Assembly: GCA_015064925.1 (NCBI GenBank)
Contig: SVRH01000003.1
Span: 1 to 41,652 of the forward strand
Reading direction: 5' to 3'
Length of the DNA stretch: 41,652 nucleotides
From: Oscillospiraceae bacterium
GTDB taxonomy: Bacteria; Bacillota; Clostridia; Oscillospirales; CAG-272
In this document: positions 3 through 5,070 of the stretch, in pieces
How the letters are laid out: the number at the start of each line of letters is the position of its first letter
How positions within the stretch are numbered: the stretch's first letter is position 1
Translations under genes and position numbers: made by a program
The notes under the pieces: model-generated
What the model was told of the DNA's origin: nothing
Seen by the model: the letters and a program-made list of their open reading frames with translations, nothing else
The model's database searches: none

Positions 3-1796
3 TTCATTGACGGTCAGAAGATCGGTCAAGCCATTGAAAACATCCTTTCCTCCGCCGACGAGAGCGTCAACACCAAGAAGGCCATCAAGCGACTGGACGA
101 TGCCCGTGTAATGCTGCTTTACAAAAACAAAAAGGGCGGTAAGATCTACGAGCTGGAAAATGAAAAGGAAGATCTGCTTGCCCGCGCCCACCGCGCGGAA
201 GAGGACTGCCGTCTGATGGCAGAAAAGAAGAAGCTTCTTTCCGACACCAATGCAACCCTGAAAAAGAACGAGGAGCAGCTGCGCATTCTGGAGGACAAGC
301 TGGCCTACACCGATGCCAGCAGACGTCTGCAGCAGATCGAAAAATCAAAGCAAGCTGAAGAGCAGCTGCAGAACGCCACAGAAGAGCTGGACGACACCGT
401 TGCTTCCCTGCTCCACGGCGATTTTTGCCCCAACAAAGCCTACCTGCAAGCCCTTGAGCGAATGGGCAAGCAGCTCATTCAGATCTCGGAGGAAAAGAAA
501 AAGCTGTCCTCTAAGATCGAAGGCGCCCGCAACGAAGCAGACGCAGAGGAGGTGTGGGCTGACGCAGAAACCATTGCCAAGCTGCACTCCCACCGTCGCA
601 AGTCCGACAAGCTGCGGCTGTGTGCCATTCTGATGCTGCTGCCCGCCGTGATGCTTTGTGCCGTCGGCTTCTTCGCGTCCTTGCTGATCCTGACCATCCC
701 GATTCCCGTTCTGCTGCTGGCGATCTCGGGCGCACTCTTCTTCCTGCAGGCAAGAGAGAAAAAAGCGTTTGACGCCATTCTGCTGCAGCTGGGCGCCGAG
801 GATGAGGAGGCAGCCACCGAGATCATTGCCCTTTGCGCCGCCAAAAACGCCAAGATCGAGGCGGCAAAGCAATCGCTGGCAGAGCTGGAAGCCGAACGGA
901 CGGCAGTTGTACAAGCAGAGGCTGCCATGTGGAAGGACGCCATTGCCCTTGCGGCAAAATGGGGCAAAACGCTCACAGATCAGCGCAGCATGGCAGAGCT
1001 GATCCGCGAAGCGGAGCTTGCCTGCAACCGACTTGACATGGCAAGCGACGAAAAGCAGCGCTGCGAGCTGGCGTACAAGAATCTGTACACCGTCGCCTCC
1101 GAGGAAGAGGTCGCTGCTCTTTCCGAAATCTTGCAAAACGGAGGCACTGAGCTTTCGGGCGAGGACTACACCAAGGCATGTAACAATCGTAAATTCTATC
1201 GTCAGACCATCGATATGCTGCAAAAAAGGAAAAGAGAGACCGAGCATCTGCTCATCGAGCTGCGCACCAAGACTGAGATCCCCGAGGATCTGCGCCTGAA
1301 GGCCACCGAGCTTGAGGGCAAGATCCGCTCCCTGCGTCTGCGTCACGACGCATATCTGCTCGCCATTCAAAAGCTGACCGAGGCATCTGTGCTCCTTCGC
1401 TCCCGTATCACCCCTGCTCTGGCGGGACAGGCGTCCGAGTTCCTCTCGCATACCACCGAAGGTAAGTACCAAAGCGTTGGTGTTGCGGATGATTTCTCCC
1501 TCAGCTACAGCGACGGCAACGCCACAAGATCCACCGACTTTCTCAGCTGCGGCACCAAGGATCTGGCTTACCTTGGTCTGCGACTGGGGCTTTCCAAAGC
1601 ACTTTTTAAGGATGAAGAGATCCCGATGGTGTTTGACGAAAGCTTTGCACGCCTGGACGACCGCCGTCTGGCGACCGTCTTTACCTATCTTGCCGATTTC
1701 GCCGCAAAGGGCGGACAGATCCTTCTGATGACCAGCGGCAGACGGGAGCGGAAATACGCCGACGCCATCGGCAATTGCAACGTGATCCAACTGTGA
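3..1796 (+). CDS. YhaN/SbcC-like AAA-family ATPase with coiled coil and internal TM hairpin (5'-truncated by window edge)
   Basis: Frame stays open upstream of the 111 ATG to the window start (FIDGQKIGQAIENILSSADE...). Long coiled coil, hydrophobic hairpin (LCAILMLLPAVMLCAVGFF...), C-terminal ABC-like signature LSCGT and Walker B/D-loop MVFDESFARLD. Confidence 0.8.
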   Translation, partial: FIDGQKIGQAIENILSSADESVNTKKAIKRLDDARVMLLYKNKKGGKIYELENEKEDLLARAHRAEEDCRLMAEKKKLLSDTNATLKKNEEQLRILEDKLAYTDASRRLQQIEKSKQAEEQLQNATEELDDTVASLLHGDFCPNKAYLQALERMGKQLIQISEEKKKLSSKIEGARNEADAEEVWADAETIAKLHSHRRKSDKLRLCAILMLLPAVMLCAVGFFASLLILTIPIPVLLLAISGALFFLQAREKKAFDAILLQLGAEDEEAATEIIALCAAKNAKIEAAKQSLAELEAERTAVVQAEAAMWKDAIALAAKWGKTLTDQRSMAELIREAELACNRLDMASDEKQRCELAYKNLYTVASEEEVAALSEILQNGGTELSGEDYTKACNNRKFYRQTIDMLQKRKRETEHLLIELRTKTEIPEDLRLKATELEGKIRSLRLRHDAYLLAIQKLTEASVLLRSRITPALAGQASEFLSHTTEGKYQSVGVADDFSLSYSDGNATRSTDFLSCGTKDLAYLGLRLGLSKALFKDEEIPMVFDESFARLDDRRLATVFTYLADFAAKGGQILLMTSGRRERKYADAIGNCNVIQL

Positions 1797-2394: not shown

Positions 2395-3149
2395 AAATAT
2401 TCGTTTCCGACTACGACGGCACCCTCAACCGCGGCGGCGGGGTCACCGAGCGTGACCTGAAGGCATTGGACGCCTGGCAGAAGGCAGGCAACCTCTTTGG
2501 CATCGCCTCGGGCAGAGATCTGCGGGGTCTTGTGAACGTATGGCAAAGGTGCCTGCCACTGAAGCCCGACTTCCTCATCGGCGGCAACGGCACCCAGCTG
2601 TACAGGGGACTTGAGGAGCGCGTGCTGCGCTTTTCTGCAAACGGCAAGGACGTGCCCCTGATCGTCGATCTGATCCTGCGGCGCGGCGGACGCATCGTGC
2701 ACATCACCGCCGAAGAGGGAAAGTACATCCTGTCCATGGACGGAAAGATCCCCGAAAATACAAAGGACTTCTACTTCACCCTCGACAATATCCCCGCCCC
2801 GAAGGAGGTCTACTCCCTCAACACCTACTTTGACACCAACAAGCTGGCAGAGGCGTTTTGCGCCGAATGCTGCACCTGCTTCCCCGCCTTTACCGCCTAT
2901 CAGAACACCGATTGCGGCGACATCGTTCCAAGGGGCACCGGCAAGGCGGAGGGCATTGCGGCGTACATAAAACACACGGGTCTGAAGCCCGAAATGGTCA
3001 TCACCGCGGGCGACTCGGGCAACGATCTGGGCATGCTGCGTGCTTACGTCGGCTGCACCCTACCAAATGCCGACGAGGAGCTGAAAACCGTGCTGGGAGA
3101 GGAAAACATCTATCCCGACATCGCGGCAATGCTCGAAAGATACCTGTAA
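2391..3149 (+). CDS. HAD-IIB (Cof-type) hydrolase
   Basis: Motif I SDYDGTL, motif II ASGR, motif III K in GTGKAEG, motif IV GDSGND; ATGA overlap with the LOG gene. Confidence 0.9.
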   Translation: MKIFVSDYDGTLNRGGGVTERDLKALDAWQKAGNLFGIASGRDLRGLVNVWQRCLPLKPDFLIGGNGTQLYRGLEERVLRFSANGKDVPLIVDLILRRGGRIVHITAEEGKYILSMDGKIPENTKDFYFTLDNIPAPKEVYSLNTYFDTNKLAEAFCAECCTCFPAFTAYQNTDCGDIVPRGTGKAEGIAAYIKHTGLKPEMVITAGDSGNDLGMLRAYVGCTLPNADEELKTVLGEENIYPDIAAMLERYL

Positions 3150-3165
3150 AAATTTCAACCATCCC

Positions 3166-3194
3166 TTTACAAAGCGGAATTTTTGTGCTATACT
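3166..3194 (+). promoter_or_regulatory. sigmaA promoter of tRNA-Arg
   Basis: TTTACA-17bp-TATACT with TGn extended -10, 11 nt before the tRNA 5' end. Confidence 0.7.
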
Positions 3195-3205
3195 CTTTGT
3201 GTTAT

Positions 3206-3282
3206 CTACCCGTGGCACAGCTGGATAGCGCGTCAGACTCCGACTCTGAAGGTCGAAGGTTCGAATCCTTTCGGGTAGGCCA
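3206..3282 (+). tRNA. tRNA-Arg (anticodon CCG)
   Basis: Acceptor stem CTACCCG/CGGGTAG, D loop AGCTGGATAG, anticodon arm TCAGA-CT-CCG-AC-TCTGA, T loop GGTTCGAATCC, encoded CCA end; 77 nt. Confidence 0.97.
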
Positions 3283-3283
3283 G

Positions 3284-3317
3284 AAAAAAGCCATTCGCAA
3301 AAGCGAATGGCTTTTTT
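3284..3317 (+). terminator. Intrinsic terminator after tRNA-Arg (potentially bidirectional)
   Basis: AAAAAA-GCCATTCGC-AAAA-GCGAATGGC-TTTTTT. Confidence 0.85.
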
Positions 3318-3319
3318 CA

Positions 3320-3504
3320 GTGAAATTCGCCTTCGGCGAGTGAAATATGGCTTCGCCATGTGAAATACTGTGCTAAAGCACGTGTGAAATATTTGCTACG
3401 CAAATGTGAGGAGGCGAATTTTATTTCACATTGCGACGAAGGAGCAATACTTCACAATTTCCAAAGGAAATTATTTCACATTCGGCAGGTGCCGAATATT
3501 TCAC
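3320..3504. repeat. Structured GTGAAAT/ATTTCAC box-and-hairpin element, copy 1 (candidate ncRNA or structured DNA site)
   Basis: GTGAAAT at 3320, 3340, 3360, 3384; ATTTCAC/ACTTCAC at 3423, 3449, 3473, 3498. Seven short hairpins lie between the boxes (e.g. TCGCC-TTC-GGCGA, ATGGC-TTC-GCCAT, ATTTGC-TAC-GCAAAT, AATTTCC-AAA-GGAAATT, ATTCGGCA-GG-TGCCGAAT). Confidence 0.9.
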
Positions 3505-3533
3505 TTGAAAAACTTACCGTGCTATGATATAAT
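3505..3533 (+). promoter_or_regulatory. sigmaA promoter abutting element copy 1, driving the four-helix-bundle gene
   Basis: TTGAAA-17bp-TATAAT with TGn extended -10; the -35 starts at the base right after the last ATTTCAC. Confidence 0.8.
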
Positions 3534-3556
3534 AACGGCAGAAAAGCGGTGTTACT

Positions 3557-3916
3557 ATGGCAGATTCAAAGCTTCGTGACCTATCCACAGATTTTGCGGT
3601 TAAAGTTATCAAAACGTGTGATGGCATAAAAGGGCATTATTCTCTTGTAAATCAGTTGGAGCGTTCCTCTACCTCAATTGGTGCCAATATTCACGAAGCG
3701 AATTATGCTCATAGCAAAGCCGACTTTGTTGCCAAGTTTCAAATTGCACTGAAGGAGTGCTACGAAACGGAATATTGGCTTGAATTATTCGTGAAATCCG
3801 AATTGCTGGATCGCGAGATTGCAAAAGAACTTTATAATCAGTGCGGAACGATTCGCAGAATGTTGATAGCCTCTATCAATACGGCGAAGGAGAACTCAAA
3901 TGACGGTAAAAAATGA
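3557..3916 (+). CDS. Four helix bundle protein (23S rRNA intervening-sequence protein/TIGR02436-like, Avd-related fold)
   Basis: Family signature QLERSSTSIGANIHEA-x4-SKADFVAKFQIALKECYETEYWLEL; 119 aa. Confidence 0.9.
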   Translation: MADSKLRDLSTDFAVKVIKTCDGIKGHYSLVNQLERSSTSIGANIHEANYAHSKADFVAKFQIALKECYETEYWLELFVKSELLDREIAKELYNQCGTIRRMLIASINTAKENSNDGKK

Positions 3917-4310
3917 TATAGTTTTGTGGGACAACGGAATAGATAAGTTTTGTTTATTAAAAGCACCAAACGAACAGCAATATAAATATATTGACGGTAT
4001 CCCTTGCATCACGTTTGGAATTTCTTATGAAAACACGAGTTTTAAGGGGTACGACACCTTTACTTTGTTTGACCATTTTTATTCTAACATAGTTAACGAG
4101 ATAGAAAGCACATATACTTCGCTAAACGGTTCTTTTCGCATCTATGACGTTGGTGCAGATACCGATGGGTATATTGAGGTTGTTATGACAAATGGGAAAC
4201 TATCTGTCAAAGGTCAGCTTGGCGCATCTTTTTCTTCACATTCGTTAATGTTTGAACTTGAAGCAGACCAAACTTTAGTAGGAAATCTGCTACAAGAGAT
4301 TACGTTTTGA
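3900..4310 (+). CDS. Hypothetical protein, possibly WapI-like immunity protein
   Basis: 136-aa AT-rich ORF overlapping the upstream gene by 17 nt. Acidic and beta-rich; C-terminus GKLSVKGQL...LMFELEADQTLV recalls WapI-family immunity proteins (from memory, unverified). Confidence 0.6.
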   Translation: MTVKNDIVLWDNGIDKFCLLKAPNEQQYKYIDGIPCITFGISYENTSFKGYDTFTLFDHFYSNIVNEIESTYTSLNGSFRIYDVGADTDGYIEVVMTNGKLSVKGQLGASFSSHSLMFELEADQTLVGNLLQEITF

Positions 4311-4399: not shown

Positions 4400-4441
4400 A
4401 AAAAACGCACTTTTGTCTACCAAGACAATGTGTGCTTTTTT
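4400..4441 (+). terminator. Terminator-like hairpin preceding element copy 2
   Basis: AAAAAA-CGCAC-TT-TTGTCT-ACCA-AGACAA-TGTGTGC-TTTTTT; imperfect stem plus U tract, in the same position relative to the element as the 3284-3317 terminator. Confidence 0.6.
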
Positions 4442-4443
4442 CA

Positions 4444-4622
4444 ACGAAATTCGCCTTCGGCGAGTGAAATATGGCTTCGCCATGTGAAATACTGTGCTAA
4501 AGCACGTGTGAAATATTTGCTACGCAAATGTGATGGACGAATTTCATTTCACATTGCGACGAAGGAGCAATACTTTACTATGCCGATAGGCATAACTTCA
4601 CTACGGCTTGCCGCAACTTCGC
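4444..4622. repeat. Structured GTGAAAT/ATTTCAC box-and-hairpin element, copy 2
   Basis: 4446-4533 is identical to 3322-3409 (88 bp). Boxes at 4444 (ACGAAAT), 4464, 4484, 4508 and 4546, 4572, 4595, 4616 (ACTTCGC). The last two side hairpins differ in sequence from copy 1 but still pair. Confidence 0.9.
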
Positions 4623-4648
4623 TTTTAATGATTATACAAGGATACGCC

Positions 4649-4677
4649 TTGTTTTATTTGCAAAAGTGTAGTATAAT
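4649..4677 (+). promoter_or_regulatory. sigmaA promoter after element copy 2
   Basis: TTGTTT-17bp-TATAAT; the -35 overlaps the 3' arm of hairpin ACAAGG-ATACG-CCTTGT. Confidence 0.65.
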
Positions 4678-4698: not shown

Positions 4699-5070
4699 AT
4701 GAGTATGCCTCACGGATACAAAAGAGAATATAACGATGTTTTATATTTTAAGAAGGATCATTTTTGCCCCGAATGTAAAACAAAATTAGATAAAGTTCCT
4801 GTTTCAAGAGTTATTAATTCCGGCTCACCTGAAGCCAAGAATTTTGATTTCAGTATGCCCGGAGGGAATTTTGCTGTAGGTGATATTCAATTCATTTGGG
4901 ATGAATTTGAATGTCCAAACTGCCAAAAACACCTTACCGTAAATGAAATGAAAGCAATTGAGGGAATCCCATTACCTAAAAAACCAAGTAAATGGAGAAA
5001 AATACTGTTTTTGATATTTGGTATTCTTTTTTTAATTGCAGTAGCATTGATAAGAGAATATTTAAGTTGA
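4699..5070 (+). CDS. Hypothetical zinc-ribbon membrane protein
   Basis: CPEC and CPNC pairs, basic patch KKPSKWRK, then a C-terminal TM helix; AAGGCGG RBS; AT-rich. Confidence 0.8.
   Translation: MSMPHGYKREYNDVLYFKKDHFCPECKTKLDKVPVSRVINSGSPEAKNFDFSMPGGNFAVGDIQFIWDEFECPNCQKHLTVNEMKAIEGIPLPKKPSKWRKILFLIFGILFLIAVALIREYLS

Follow-up and report, generated by a model that had tools for sequence, protein, structure and literature searches.

A dispersed intergenic module of two inverted Gut-1 arrays and its association with PF05635 genes

Results

The 185-nt element at positions 3320–3504 of the window, by which we mean the whole 41 652 nt stretch of Oscillospiraceae DNA analysed here (contig SVRH01000003.1), was shown to be one copy of a dispersed intergenic module composed of two inverted Gut-1 arrays. 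The left half is already known as Rfam Gut-1; here it turns out to form half of a many-copy module tightly linked to genes of the PF05635 family.

Layout of the element in the window

The ‘fishbone’ pattern at 3320–3504 was confirmed as real and far beyond chance. Pattern search of the window located GTGAAAT boxes on the + strand at 3320, 3340, 3360 and 3384, exactly as listed in the initial annotation, and the reverse complement at 3423, 3473 and 3498; the eighth box, at 3449–3455, had been listed as a further reverse complement and reads ACTTCAC, with one mismatch. A partial GTGA is present at 3406. Both strands of the window together contain 15 GTGAAAT matches, as against 6.29 ± 2.27 in shuffled sequences, where 15 was reached in none of 100, and 11 of the 15 are concentrated in two clusters (3320–3504 and 4464–4552). 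The seven different small inverted repeats described earlier between the boxes were all found (3327–3339, 3347–3359, 3367–3383, 3391–3405, 3430–3448, 3456–3472 and 3480–3497). The region is organized as follows, all features being given on the + strand.

3206–3282, +: tRNA-Arg, anticodon CCG (ARAGORN; Rfam tRNA, 58 bits)
3284–3317, +: T0, a GC-rich hairpin (3290–3311) between an A-run and a T-run (sequence)
3320–3405, +: left array, four GTGAAAT boxes, each with a short hairpin of its own behind it (Rfam Gut-1, box search)
3406–3422, +: centre, partial box GTGAGG and a segment complementary to 3323–3331 (sequence)
3423–3504, +: right array, four ATTTCAC boxes (ACTTCAC at 3449) with three longer hairpins between them (Gut-1-like on the − strand)
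3505–3533, +: sigma-70-type promoter-like site, TTGAAA, 17 nt, TATAAT with a preceding TG (scan, 11 of 12 matches)
3557–3916, +: PF05635 gene (IVP gene), 119 aa (Pfam)
3900–4310, +: ORF of 136 aa, its first 17 nt shared with the end of the IVP gene (ORF list; no Pfam family)
4400–4441, +: second T0 hairpin with T-run (sequence)
4442–4622, +: second element copy (Gut-1 matches, sequence, comparison with G000:C120)
4699–5070, +: 123-aa ORF 3' of the second copy (zinc-ribbon-like matches, all sub-threshold)

The module begins immediately 3' of the CCA end of tRNA-Arg(CCG). T0 resembles, by eye, an intrinsic terminator that could be used on both strands; as it was absent from the output of the terminator scan, owing to the stem or tail rules of the scan, this call is a reading of the sequence only. 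The seven inner hairpins have no T-runs and thus lack the combination of GC-rich hairpin and T-run that marks an intrinsic terminator, and the scan flagged that at 3480–3497 alone because the following box is T-rich. The segment 3323–3331, to which the centre is complementary, comprises the end of box 1 and the 5' arm of hairpin 1. The promoter-like site, a consensus match, directly abuts the element, so that the last box touches the −35 hexamer, and the same promoter and 5' leader were found again behind other copies. In the second copy, the left array and the first right hairpin are almost identical to those of the first, and the remaining right units belong to the ACTTCAC (GTGAAGT-type) subfamily, which marks this copy as a chimera. 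The T0 type preceding it also occurs behind tRNAs at G000:C105 and L139. The 136-aa and 123-aa ORFs are regarded as cargo.

Identity with Rfam Gut-1

The initial annotation could not match the element to anything known and named a strong Rfam match as the result that would remove its novelty. This part of its reading proved wrong, as cmscan assigned 3318–3395 on the + strand to Gut-1 (RF01706) with 63.0 bits and an E-value of 2.4e-10, above the gathering score of 50, the match spanning model positions 1–77 and hence the full model. The right half (3418–3506, − strand) scored 48.2 bits in the E-value mode of cmscan, below the cut-off of 50. In the second copy, the left half (4442–4519, + strand) reached 62.7 bits and the right half (4536–4603, − strand) 33.4 bits. 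The left array also shows the defining features of the family, i.e. three hairpins split by UGAAAU words, with stems that covary among 25 relatives. Gut-1 is filed as an RNA family in Rfam and is classed as a likely RNA with a gut-metagenome habitat in Table 1 of Weinberg et al. (2010; PMC2864571); the sequencing runs that carry the present element come from animal gut or faeces.

Folding and covariation

As had been suggested, both strands were folded, and all folds of 3283–3510 were far more stable than those of shuffled sequences, none of which equalled the observed energy: −89.8 kcal/mol for the + strand RNA (z −8.3), −90.0 kcal/mol for the − strand RNA (z −10.4) and −60.6 kcal/mol for the + strand DNA (z −10.2). 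Relatives were collected as a parsed set of 52 elements with boxes GTGA[AT][AG]T, at least two forward and then at least two reverse, other box types being identified by eye. Among unique spacers, 68% on the left and 80% on the right form at least four Watson–Crick pairs from their ends (2.7% and 4.6%, respectively, in shuffles), with 35 distinct arm sequences on the left and 42 on the right, which supports a pairing constraint on the hairpins. For covariation analysis we aligned 24 of the 28 elements of pattern +++---- together with the second copy of the window, leaving out as near-duplicates the second copies of L080 and L112 as well as L022 and L044. In this 25-sequence alignment, whose left part is poorly registered owing to differing unit numbers and in which the boxes hardly vary, 94.4% of cells were paired, as against 75.4% in shuffles (0 of 500 as high) and 36–46% in slid controls. 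The right hairpins R2 and R3 covary, and the check by covariation named earlier thus came out in favour of a structured element. Palindrome-correcting mutation is a process that could mimic covariation.

The consensus fold of the 25 elements contains a long-range helix of 11 pairs, P1, in which the first box and the first arm pair with the centre. Seven of the 11 pairs have changed on both sides, 97.4% of cells are paired, and 42 of 49 elements have a centre that agrees with the left end in at least 10 of 12 positions. P1 would form in place of hairpin 1. The ladder with four-way junctions put forward in the initial annotation held in part: its nested box-to-box pairs are present in the minimum-energy folds of the single sequence and absent from the consensus fold, in which P1 excludes the nested ladder for the left array. 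When single deviating boxes were examined by eye, one was compensated in its nested partner (L107) and five were not (window 3449, L067, L070, L119 and L163). Hairpin-less relatives form one long stem.

The boxes are spaced by 16, 18, 20, 22 or 24 nt on the left and by 24 or 25 nt on the right. Such variable spacing argues against a helically phased array bound as double-stranded DNA, which had been considered for a multimeric binding protein, and in favour of a state in which the hairpins are formed. Within an element the boxes are invariant while the hairpins drift, the hallmark of boxes that are read sequence-specifically.

Strand and transcription

Wobble pairs inside stems, counted for spacers with at least 70% Watson–Crick pairs and at least four pairs, comprised 20 G–T versus 9 A–C and favour the + strand in both halves (9 versus 5 on the left, 11 versus 4 on the right). 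Folding of individual left spacers was better on the + strand in 12 cases and on the − strand in 10, with 38 ties, and for the right spacers the corresponding numbers were 63, 13 and 30. Folds that included the box edges pointed to the + strand for the left half in 52 of 52 elements and to the − strand for the right half in 45 of 52. As the three tests disagree, no strand was assigned. The loop sequences of the two halves are mirror images. On the + strand, the hairpins of the right half have many G..A tetraloops; the loops of the strand that reads ATTTCAC are mostly G-N-A or G-N-N-A with C–G closing pairs, which we take to be an unusually stable type of DNA mini-hairpin.

A promoter scan returned nothing within the element and nothing on the minus strand. 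With a terminator-like hairpin before it and a strong promoter-like site after it, the element may be barely transcribed in the window. At 16 of 42 PF05635 loci, the last box lies 35 nt or less from the start codon, and there the array must be transcribed. Two of the 24 sequencing runs with the element were RNA, with small shares (0.10 and 0.07); in the contigs of these two libraries the coverage of the element was no different from that in DNA libraries, and contigs break at the repeats in RNA and DNA libraries alike.

Copies and genomic placement

The presence of the second copy (4442–4622) and of further loci in the genome upheld the earlier view of a real, structured and repeated object. 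The genome (1.77 Mb, 88% complete) contains 17 Gut-1 matches at 11 loci, and a box-agnostic scan added three loci to give about 14, of which five lie at contig ends. Gut-1 matches were present in 27 of 41 related genomes, with up to 58 per genome, and in only 3 of 121 genomes of a phylum-wide sample. Typically a stable-RNA gene comes first and is followed by the terminator hairpin, the left array, the centre, the right array and then a promoter or ribosome-binding site. In 26 of 47 parsed elements a co-oriented tRNA of one of 12 types ends within 90 nt upstream, and one element lies behind tmRNA. T0 travels with the arrays and not with the tRNA, the same T0 types occurring behind different tRNAs and in other genera; TTTT was found within 40 nt upstream of 38 of 48 elements, and a promoter-like motif within 70 nt downstream of only 14 of 52.

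Cassettes follow each other in tandem at a distance of about 1.1 kb in the window as well as in G000:C91 and G001:C71. At the tRNA-Arg(CCG) locus, GTGAAAT arrays are present here and no array is found in G001, a syntenic genome of the same genus; the locus has a remnant of the ATGATG type in G020 and one of the GTGAAGT type in G017. Besides the second copy of the window, L031 is chimeric, with its junction in the loop of hairpin 1. No target-site duplications were seen at the copies, the recombination points vary by case, and searches of phage and plasmid collections returned no match to the element. No integrase was seen beside the element; the two tyrosine recombinase (PF00589) matches of the genome lie on contigs C115 and C94, outside the window. 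A link with RAYT or IS200 was rejected, the sole Y1 transposase gene (PF01797; G000:C44) being IS200-like with no boxes in its flanks. A link with diversity-generating retroelements (DGR) was likewise rejected, since the 88% complete genome yielded no reverse transcriptase (PF00078) match and the neighbours are unrelated ORFs.

Association with PF05635

The product of 3557–3916 belongs to PF05635 (23S rRNA IVS protein or S23p, an Avd-like four-helix bundle), with 90.1 bits, a cut-off of 33.8 and an E-value of 1.3e-25. Its nearest solved structure is PDB chain 2rld_A (E 6.8e-23), from an entry with five chains. The gene 3' of the IVP gene differs among relatives. An array directly precedes both intact PF05635 genes of this genome, and among 48 elements sampled irrespective of protein PF05635 was the next gene in 10. 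It is the most frequent small gene behind the module. In the 41 related genomes, Gut-1 and PF05635 occurred together in 23, Gut-1 only in 4, PF05635 only in 1 and neither in 13 (Fisher p 1.6e-6; Spearman rho of the counts 0.84; kinship ignored in both).

Lineage-specific 7-nt boxes lie upstream of nearly all PF05635 genes. A 6-mer and its reverse complement occurred at least five times in the 260 nt upstream of 42 of 55 PF05635 genes, and a 6-mer occurred at least four times in the 250 nt upstream of 29 of 54 PF05635 genes, compared with 7 of 116 control ORFs. The different box words number at least 17, and wherever both arrays are present the left and right words are reverse complements. Tandem heptamers precede PF05635 genes across the phylum and also inside 23S rRNA, and a Chlorobi MAG has contiguous GTGAAAT heptamers upstream of such a gene. 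In the literature searched, the sole case of heptamers upstream of a PF05635 gene was that of Coxiella (available text of PMC4990558); neither a Gut-1–PF05635 link nor a general heptamer rule for PF05635 was met there, although the Additional files of PMC2864571 may mention some of this.

Given the physical linkage of gene and array, simple co-inheritance may account for a shared box type. GTGAAAT arrays occur in 13 genomes, six of which (G000, G001, G010, G013, G017 and G020) were found to have a PF05635 gene bearing boxes of this word. G031 is a probable seventh, with one PF05635 gene bearing mainly ATGAAAT boxes and one GTGAAAT box and another gene cut at the contig start. In G015 the second PF05635 gene is cut at the contig end. 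No GTGAAAT-boxed PF05635 gene was found in G003, where nine PF05635 genes were seen, nor in G027, G036 or G018, and G022 has the element and no PF05635 gene. With the gene found in six, probably seven, of the 13 genomes and not found in five, the idea that orphan copies strictly depend in trans on a PF05635 gene of cognate type was rejected.

Discussion

The initial annotation was thus partly supported, and the question of what the module does can be approached through its linked gene. We put forward, from the arrangement of the sequence and while stopping short of calling it probable, that the hairpins loop out and that the boxes form a multivalent platform for the PF05635 protein at cassette junctions. 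Once the sequence is single-stranded, be it as a transcript or in DNA that is unwound for a time, all of its variable parts would be taken up by the hairpins and the long-range helix, and the identical boxes alone would be left exposed and brought side by side for the adjacently encoded, presumably pentameric, Avd-like protein. Its binding would control the expression and/or the maintenance of the cassette at that junction, the target in cis being the IVP gene and those in trans being orphan copies, 4442–4622 among them. The homologous Avd forms a pentameric barrel; each of its five protomers takes part in binding a single RNA stem-loop, and flipped-out bases lie in the crevices between protomers (available text of bioRxiv 10.1101/2023.10.23.563531). 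It counts against such a platform that on one strand the left boxes read GTGAAAT and the right boxes ATTTCAC, so that a reader of single strands cannot recognize both. A wider proposal is possible but rather doubtful: PF05635 proteins would be sequence-specific readers of 7-nt arrays with lineage-own words, and protein gene and array would together be a selfish cassette system, hitherto unrecognized, whose home is within or next to genes for stable RNAs (23S rRNA, RNase P RNA, tRNA and tmRNA). Gut-1 would then be the Oscillospirales-type array, in which looped-out hairpins space the boxes, and orphan copies would be the junctions of further gene cassettes.

Two other explanations, each unlikely yet to be taken seriously, dispense with the protein as reader. 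According to one, the element is a structured ncRNA of the sense strand, i.e. Gut-1 extended to ∼185 nt, which acts without the PF05635 protein. It could stem from read-through of the tRNA or be a leader or intercistronic element, and could serve in processing, stability or insulation, for instance as a nuclease substrate like the stems of rRNA IVS. The classification of Gut-1 as a likely RNA in Rfam and in the available text of Weinberg et al. (2010; PMC2864571), the strong covariation of the hairpins and P1, the in-stem wobble pairs favouring the + strand in both halves (20 versus 9), the greater stability of the right spacers as + strand RNA (63 versus 13) with their G..A tetraloops, and the arrays that abut a ribosome-binding site, and hence are transcribed, at 16 of 42 PF05635 loci are all in keeping with such an RNA, as is the single long stem of hairpin-less relatives, which recalls IVS stems (available text of PMC4990558). 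It is difficult to reconcile with the terminator-like hairpin and T-run that lie upstream both here and at 38 of 48 elements, the promoter-like site downstream in the absence of one inside the element or on the minus strand, and the unremarkable coverage in RNA-library contigs; moreover, structure alone would permit the boxes of an element to drift, which they do not, and a single transcript needs no mirror symmetry of loops and box edges. That symmetry is natural for DNA, and according to the other explanation the module is a mobile or recombining DNA repeat (of the REP/BIME, MITE, BOX-like or cassette-junction kind) with hairpins in single-stranded DNA, mediating the insertion, exchange or loss of small cassettes beside stable-RNA genes, with PF05635 merely its commonest cargo. 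Many copies, five of 14 own-genome loci at contig ends, the tandem cassettes, the 26 of 47 elements behind tRNAs of 12 types and the one behind tmRNA, the variable tRNA-Arg(CCG) locus, the chimeric copies, and the C–G-closed G-N-A and G-N-N-A loops of the ATTTCAC strand fit this well. It is weakened by the want of a linked enzyme, as the only Y1 transposase gene is IS200-like without boxes nearby, the two tyrosine-recombinase matches lie on other contigs and no reverse transcriptase match was obtained in the genome; by target-site duplications not being seen, recombination points that differ between cases and no match in phage or plasmid collections; and it leaves unexplained the plain heptamers, free of cassettes, at PF05635 genes of distant phyla.

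On duplex DNA both arrays repeat one and the same word, the last box touches the −35 hexamer, and boxes in direct plus inverted arrangement are typically found in operators and iterons. A double-stranded operator array, on which a conventional transcription factor would occupy the 7-bp duplex boxes to control the abutting promoter, nevertheless seems very improbable, since the left spacing is unphased, a promoter-like motif follows within 70 nt in only 14 of 52 copies, and an operator would have no use for the hairpin potential, the loop bias or the long-range helix.

Several known systems resemble the module in part. REP/BIME elements and REPINs with RAYT consist of a short conserved word and a hairpin unit, in inverted arrangements and in many extragenic copies after terminators. 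Many extragenic word-plus-hairpin units in inverted pairs are found here too; however, no RAYT flanked by repeats was found, the one PF01797 match being IS200-like, the hairpins differ from unit to unit, and the linked gene encodes a non-enzymatic helical bundle. The pneumococcal BOX and Neisseria Correia repeats are modular, folding, located near promoters and able to alter the expression of neighbouring genes, and we know of no sequence relation between them and the element, nor of a 7-nt box array or a dedicated linked protein gene in either. Integron attC sites, conserved in structure more than in sequence, lie between small variable tandem cassettes. Integron cassettes are promoterless and adjacent to an IntI-type integrase, whereas the cassettes of the window have their own promoter-like sites and a terminator, are tRNA-proximal, lack the attC box layout and occur in a genome whose two PF00589 matches are on other contigs.

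With the 23S rRNA IVS and its S23p ORF the module shares the protein family (PF05635 at 3557–3916), heptamer repeats upstream of the ORF, inverted repeats able to pair and a stable-RNA gene as host site. In Coxiella burnetii the IVS has tandem 7-nt repeats of variable copy number just upstream of the ORF (available text of PMC4990558), but the boxes of the window are spaced by side hairpins. An IVS is inserted in helix 25 or 45 of 23S rRNA, and its arms flank the ORF within helix 45 and are cut by RNase III, whereas both arrays of the window lie upstream of the ORF and outside rRNA, following tRNA-Arg, often with a promoter between arrays and ORF; a true 23S-located relative exists elsewhere (L207). 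The Avd of DGRs is a homologous pentameric four-helix-bundle barrel and binds structured RNA encoded beside its own gene (available text of bioRxiv 10.1101/2023.10.23.563531), but it binds one stem-loop and not a box array, and the present genome gave no reverse transcriptase match. As for Gut-1, the left array fits the 77-position model end to end, with UGAAAU boxes and three hairpins. The Rfam entry describes a free-standing 77-nt sRNA candidate; the element of the window, in contrast, is an inverted pair with a long-range helix, present in many copies, situated between a terminator-like hairpin and a promoter-like site beside stable-RNA genes, and linked to PF05635.

The RNA motif Gut-1, known since 2010, and the protein family PF05635, known from the time when rRNA intervening sequences were first described, have both remained orphans. 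Our data connect one with the other, and the connection reaches as far as the plain heptamer repeats of other phyla. If PF05635 pentamers indeed bind their own boxes, this would explain the PF05635 genes in rRNA, in RNase P RNA and in tRNA flanks, the role of non-retroelement Avd relatives, and why MAGs of gut Clostridia break at these repeats. Should binding prove false, the element would still be a useful marker for cassette hot spots beside tRNA genes.

Identity and structure of the element

Comparison with Rfam 15 using cmscan assigned positions 3318-3395 (+ strand) to the Gut-1 family (RF01706) at 63 bits, against a cut-off of 50, and the corresponding part of the second copy (4442-4519) to the same family at 62.7 bits. 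At a looser threshold, the right halves of the two copies matched the Gut-1 model on the opposite strand (3418-3506, 48.2 bits; 4536-4603, 33.4 bits), so that the 'fishbone' consists of two Gut-1 motifs in inverted orientation. The initial annotation had been unable to match the element to a tRNA, CRISPR array, riboswitch or terminator and had named a strong Rfam hit as the result that would remove its novelty; such a hit now places it in an already described family, and as an object it is thus little new. Gut-1 is presented, in the part of Weinberg et al. 2010 (PMC2864571) consulted, as a probable non-coding RNA found in human gut metagenomes only and carrying no assigned function.

Reading of the sequence and a word search confirmed the box positions proposed earlier, as well as the seven inter-box segments as seven different short inverted repeats.

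Features of the element and the adjoining genes (window positions)
3320, 3340, 3360, 3384 (+): GTGAAAT boxes (sequence reading of 3000-3900 and word search)
3406: partial box (sequence and word search)
3423, 3473, 3498: reverse-complement boxes (word search)
3449: one-mismatch box, ACTTCAC (sequence and word search)
3505-3533 (+): promoter-like site, 11/12 consensus matches
3557-3916 (+): 23S_rRNA_IVP (PF05635) ORF, E = 1.3e-25
3900-4310 (+): 136-aa ORF with no Pfam family, overlapping the PF05635 gene end by 17 nt

The window element is a real object. GTGAAAT occurred 15 times in the window compared with 6.3 ± 2.3 times in shuffles, a count reached by none of 100 shuffles, and single-sequence folds of both RNA strands and with DNA parameters were far more stable than those of shuffled sequences (z = −8.3, −10.4 and −10.2). 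The nested box-to-box pairs of the proposed ladder of four-way junctions are present in the single-sequence folds; the ladder is missing from the RNAalifold consensus of 25 elements. Among the cases seen (by eye), a deviant single box was compensated in its nested partner once and uncompensated five times.

Order of parts and a long-range helix

Compared in one orientation, all copies show their parts in a fixed order. First comes a stable-RNA gene's 3' end, then T0 (a GC-rich hairpin with a T-run), a first and often degenerate box with hairpin 1, three or four further box-plus-hairpin units, the centre, and three hairpins with a reverse box on either side of each; very often, a promoter-like site (TTGAAA-17-TGnTATAAT) comes next, ahead of a conserved leader and the start codon. 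A promoter scan found no such site on the minus strand of the window element.

Complementarity links the centre to the end of box 1 and the 5' arm of hairpin 1, with at least 10 of 12 positions matching in 42 of 49 elements, and from the 25 elements RNAalifold selected this very pairing, a long-range helix of 11 pairs. Both partners had changed in seven of the 11 pairs, and the share of paired cells was 97.4%. For the whole consensus, comprising the long-range helix and the hairpins, 94.4% of cells were paired versus 75.4% in shuffles, none of 500 being as high, and 36-46% when partners were slid. The long-range helix encloses the left array of forward boxes, so that helix and ladder exclude each other in that array. 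The hairpins themselves are real: 68% of unique spacers on the left and 80% on the right paired from their ends (2.7% and 4.6% in shuffles), and the arms came in 35 and 42 distinct sequences. Boxes are spaced at 16, 18 or 20 nt in the left array and at 24 or 25 nt in the right one, in step with stem length and not with the DNA helical repeat.

Copies with ACTTCAC-type right boxes carry a small conserved hairpin, CAAGG...CCTTG, between array and promoter (window 4636-4652; G000:C43, C91 and C120 in the same genome; locus L032), which was flagged as terminator-like by the scan. At eight loci (L019, L021, L022, L044, L077, L089, L162 and L163) the promoter is replaced by a conserved stretch of ∼70 nt right behind the last box, holding a T-loop-like ...GAGAGTTCGAA... 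word and ...AAAATATCTTTTT..., and matching no Rfam family.

Distribution and stable-RNA neighbourhood

The element's own genome (1.77 Mb, 123 contigs, 88% complete) contains 11 loci with 17 Gut-1 matches, to which a box-agnostic scan added three; five of the 14 loci lie at contig ends, and the box words include GTGAAAT, GTGAAGT, GTGATAT, ATGATAT and TGAATTG. Its only Y1 transposase gene (G000:C44:11962-12318), considered for a link to the element, is of IS200-like type; it is flanked by hairpins of its own and shows no relation to the box arrays. Gut-1 matches were present in 27 of 41 related genomes, with a maximum of 58 per genome, and in only 3 of 121 genomes of a phylum-wide sample.

Of the 47 parsed elements whose upstream sequence was long enough, 26 had a co-oriented tRNA gene at most 90 nt upstream, 12 tRNA types being represented. 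In one case (L022, 1119-1577) the element begins 36 nt past a tmRNA gene, and thus tmRNA flanks are used besides tRNA flanks. T0 types recur with different tRNAs, which makes T0 part of the module. Relatives differ at the tRNA-Arg(CCG) locus of the window: no element is present in the syntenic genome G001 of the same genus, G017 has a truncated GTGAAGT-type array, and in G020 (L261, G020:C76) a left array of ATGATG type is fused to a PF05635 gene remnant. The second window copy is chimeric, with boxes of two subfamilies, and at L031 a junction lies inside the loop of hairpin 1.

Association with PF05635 genes

The nearest solved relative of the protein encoded at 3557-3916 is 2RLD, a five-chain entry. 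An array directly precedes both intact PF05635 genes of the genome, and at a third locus (G000:C38, ∼2600-2800, minus strand) a TGAATTG-type left array is fused to the last codons of the gene. This locus and L261 are independent remnants, with the left array joined directly to the last ∼25 PF05635 codons and the right array, promoter and most of the gene deleted.

PF05635 was the next gene in 10 of 48 elements sampled regardless of protein. Among the 41 genomes, 23 carried both Gut-1 and PF05635, four Gut-1 only (1-3 matches each), one PF05635 only and 13 neither (Fisher p = 1.6e-6; Spearman rho of the counts 0.84; kinship ignored in both). Within 260 nt upstream of 42 of 55 PF05635 genes, a 6-mer and its reverse complement occurred at least five times, and a 6-mer occurring at least four times within 250 nt preceded 29 of 54 PF05635 genes versus 7 of 116 control ORFs. 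These arrays share a common architecture with at least 17 box words, left and right words being reverse complements in every case with two arrays; at some loci, arrays without hairpins would fold as one long stem. Genomes G003 (9 matches), G018 (6), G010 and G017 (5 each) carry many PF05635 genes with a different box word for each, which suggests several parallel specificities in one cell. In relatives, the gene directly after PF05635 is tightly coupled to it, in many loci at an offset between −17 and +18 nt, and its identity varies by locus.

PF05635 genes were found in 28 of the 121 genomes of the phylum sample, usually preceded by plain tandem heptamers, some within 23S rRNA and one within an RNase P RNA gene. 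At L207, L208, L213 and L221, a PF05635 gene and its tandem heptamers adjoin 23S rRNA sequence, and the L207 gene was confirmed inside a bacterial LSU rRNA match. At L212 (G092:C1, 1229-2003) the 367-position Rfam RNase P class A model matches across 775 nt, and the PF05635 ORF and heptamers inside this match suggest an intervening sequence in the RNase P RNA gene. In a Chlorobi bacterium OLB5 MAG (L075), five contiguous GTGAAAT heptamers, with one more past a 7-nt gap and no hairpins, stand directly before a PF05635 gene (285-641, minus strand); the word is that of the window, though the phylum is distant. The Coxiella IVS has three tandem heptamers, variable in number, ahead of S23p, according to the consulted part of PMC4990558. 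Neither a general heptamer rule for PF05635 nor a Gut-1/PF05635 link was found in the literature searched.

Discussion

Boxes identical within an element, freely drifting yet always-pairing spacers and unphased spacing indicate that the boxes are read by sequence while the spacers are looped out, and hence that a single-stranded or extruded state is needed. The obvious reader would be the PF05635 protein, whose gene lies alongside. Avd, a homologue of this protein, is described, in the part of bioRxiv 10.1101/2023.10.23.563531 consulted, as a positively charged pentameric barrel whose five protomers jointly hold a single RNA stem-loop, flipped-out bases lying in the inter-protomer crevices. 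The likeliest of the readings, put forward with limited confidence, is therefore that each four- or five-box array is a multivalent platform for one PF05635 pentamer, through which the cassette at the junction in question would be controlled or maintained.

Several observations stand against such a platform. In the window, the element is preceded by a terminator-like hairpin and followed by a promoter-like site. Three strand tests gave conflicting answers, and the mirror-image halves suit DNA better than a single transcript. The last point would fit a repeat that moves or recombines as DNA and carries PF05635 as cargo, which we consider unlikely; no transposase, integrase or reverse transcriptase was linked to the element, and it had no match in the phage and plasmid collections searched. 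An array of duplex operators is highly improbable given the unphased spacing. Also against the platform, no GTGAAAT-word PF05635 gene was among those seen in G003, G027, G036 and G018 despite orphan GTGAAAT arrays, and G022 has such an array and no PF05635 gene at all. A sense-strand RNA acting without protein, as a processing or insulating element, would have no need of the mirror symmetry; we consider it as unlikely as the DNA-level repeat. In favour of the pentamer platform, 16 of 42 loci have the array directly next to the ribosome-binding site, where it must be transcribed.

The inverted-pair architecture, the long-range helix, the stable-RNA placement and the tie to the heptamer arrays of PF05635 genes appear undescribed in the literature searched. 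Gut-1 and PF05635, two orphan families, become one testable question.
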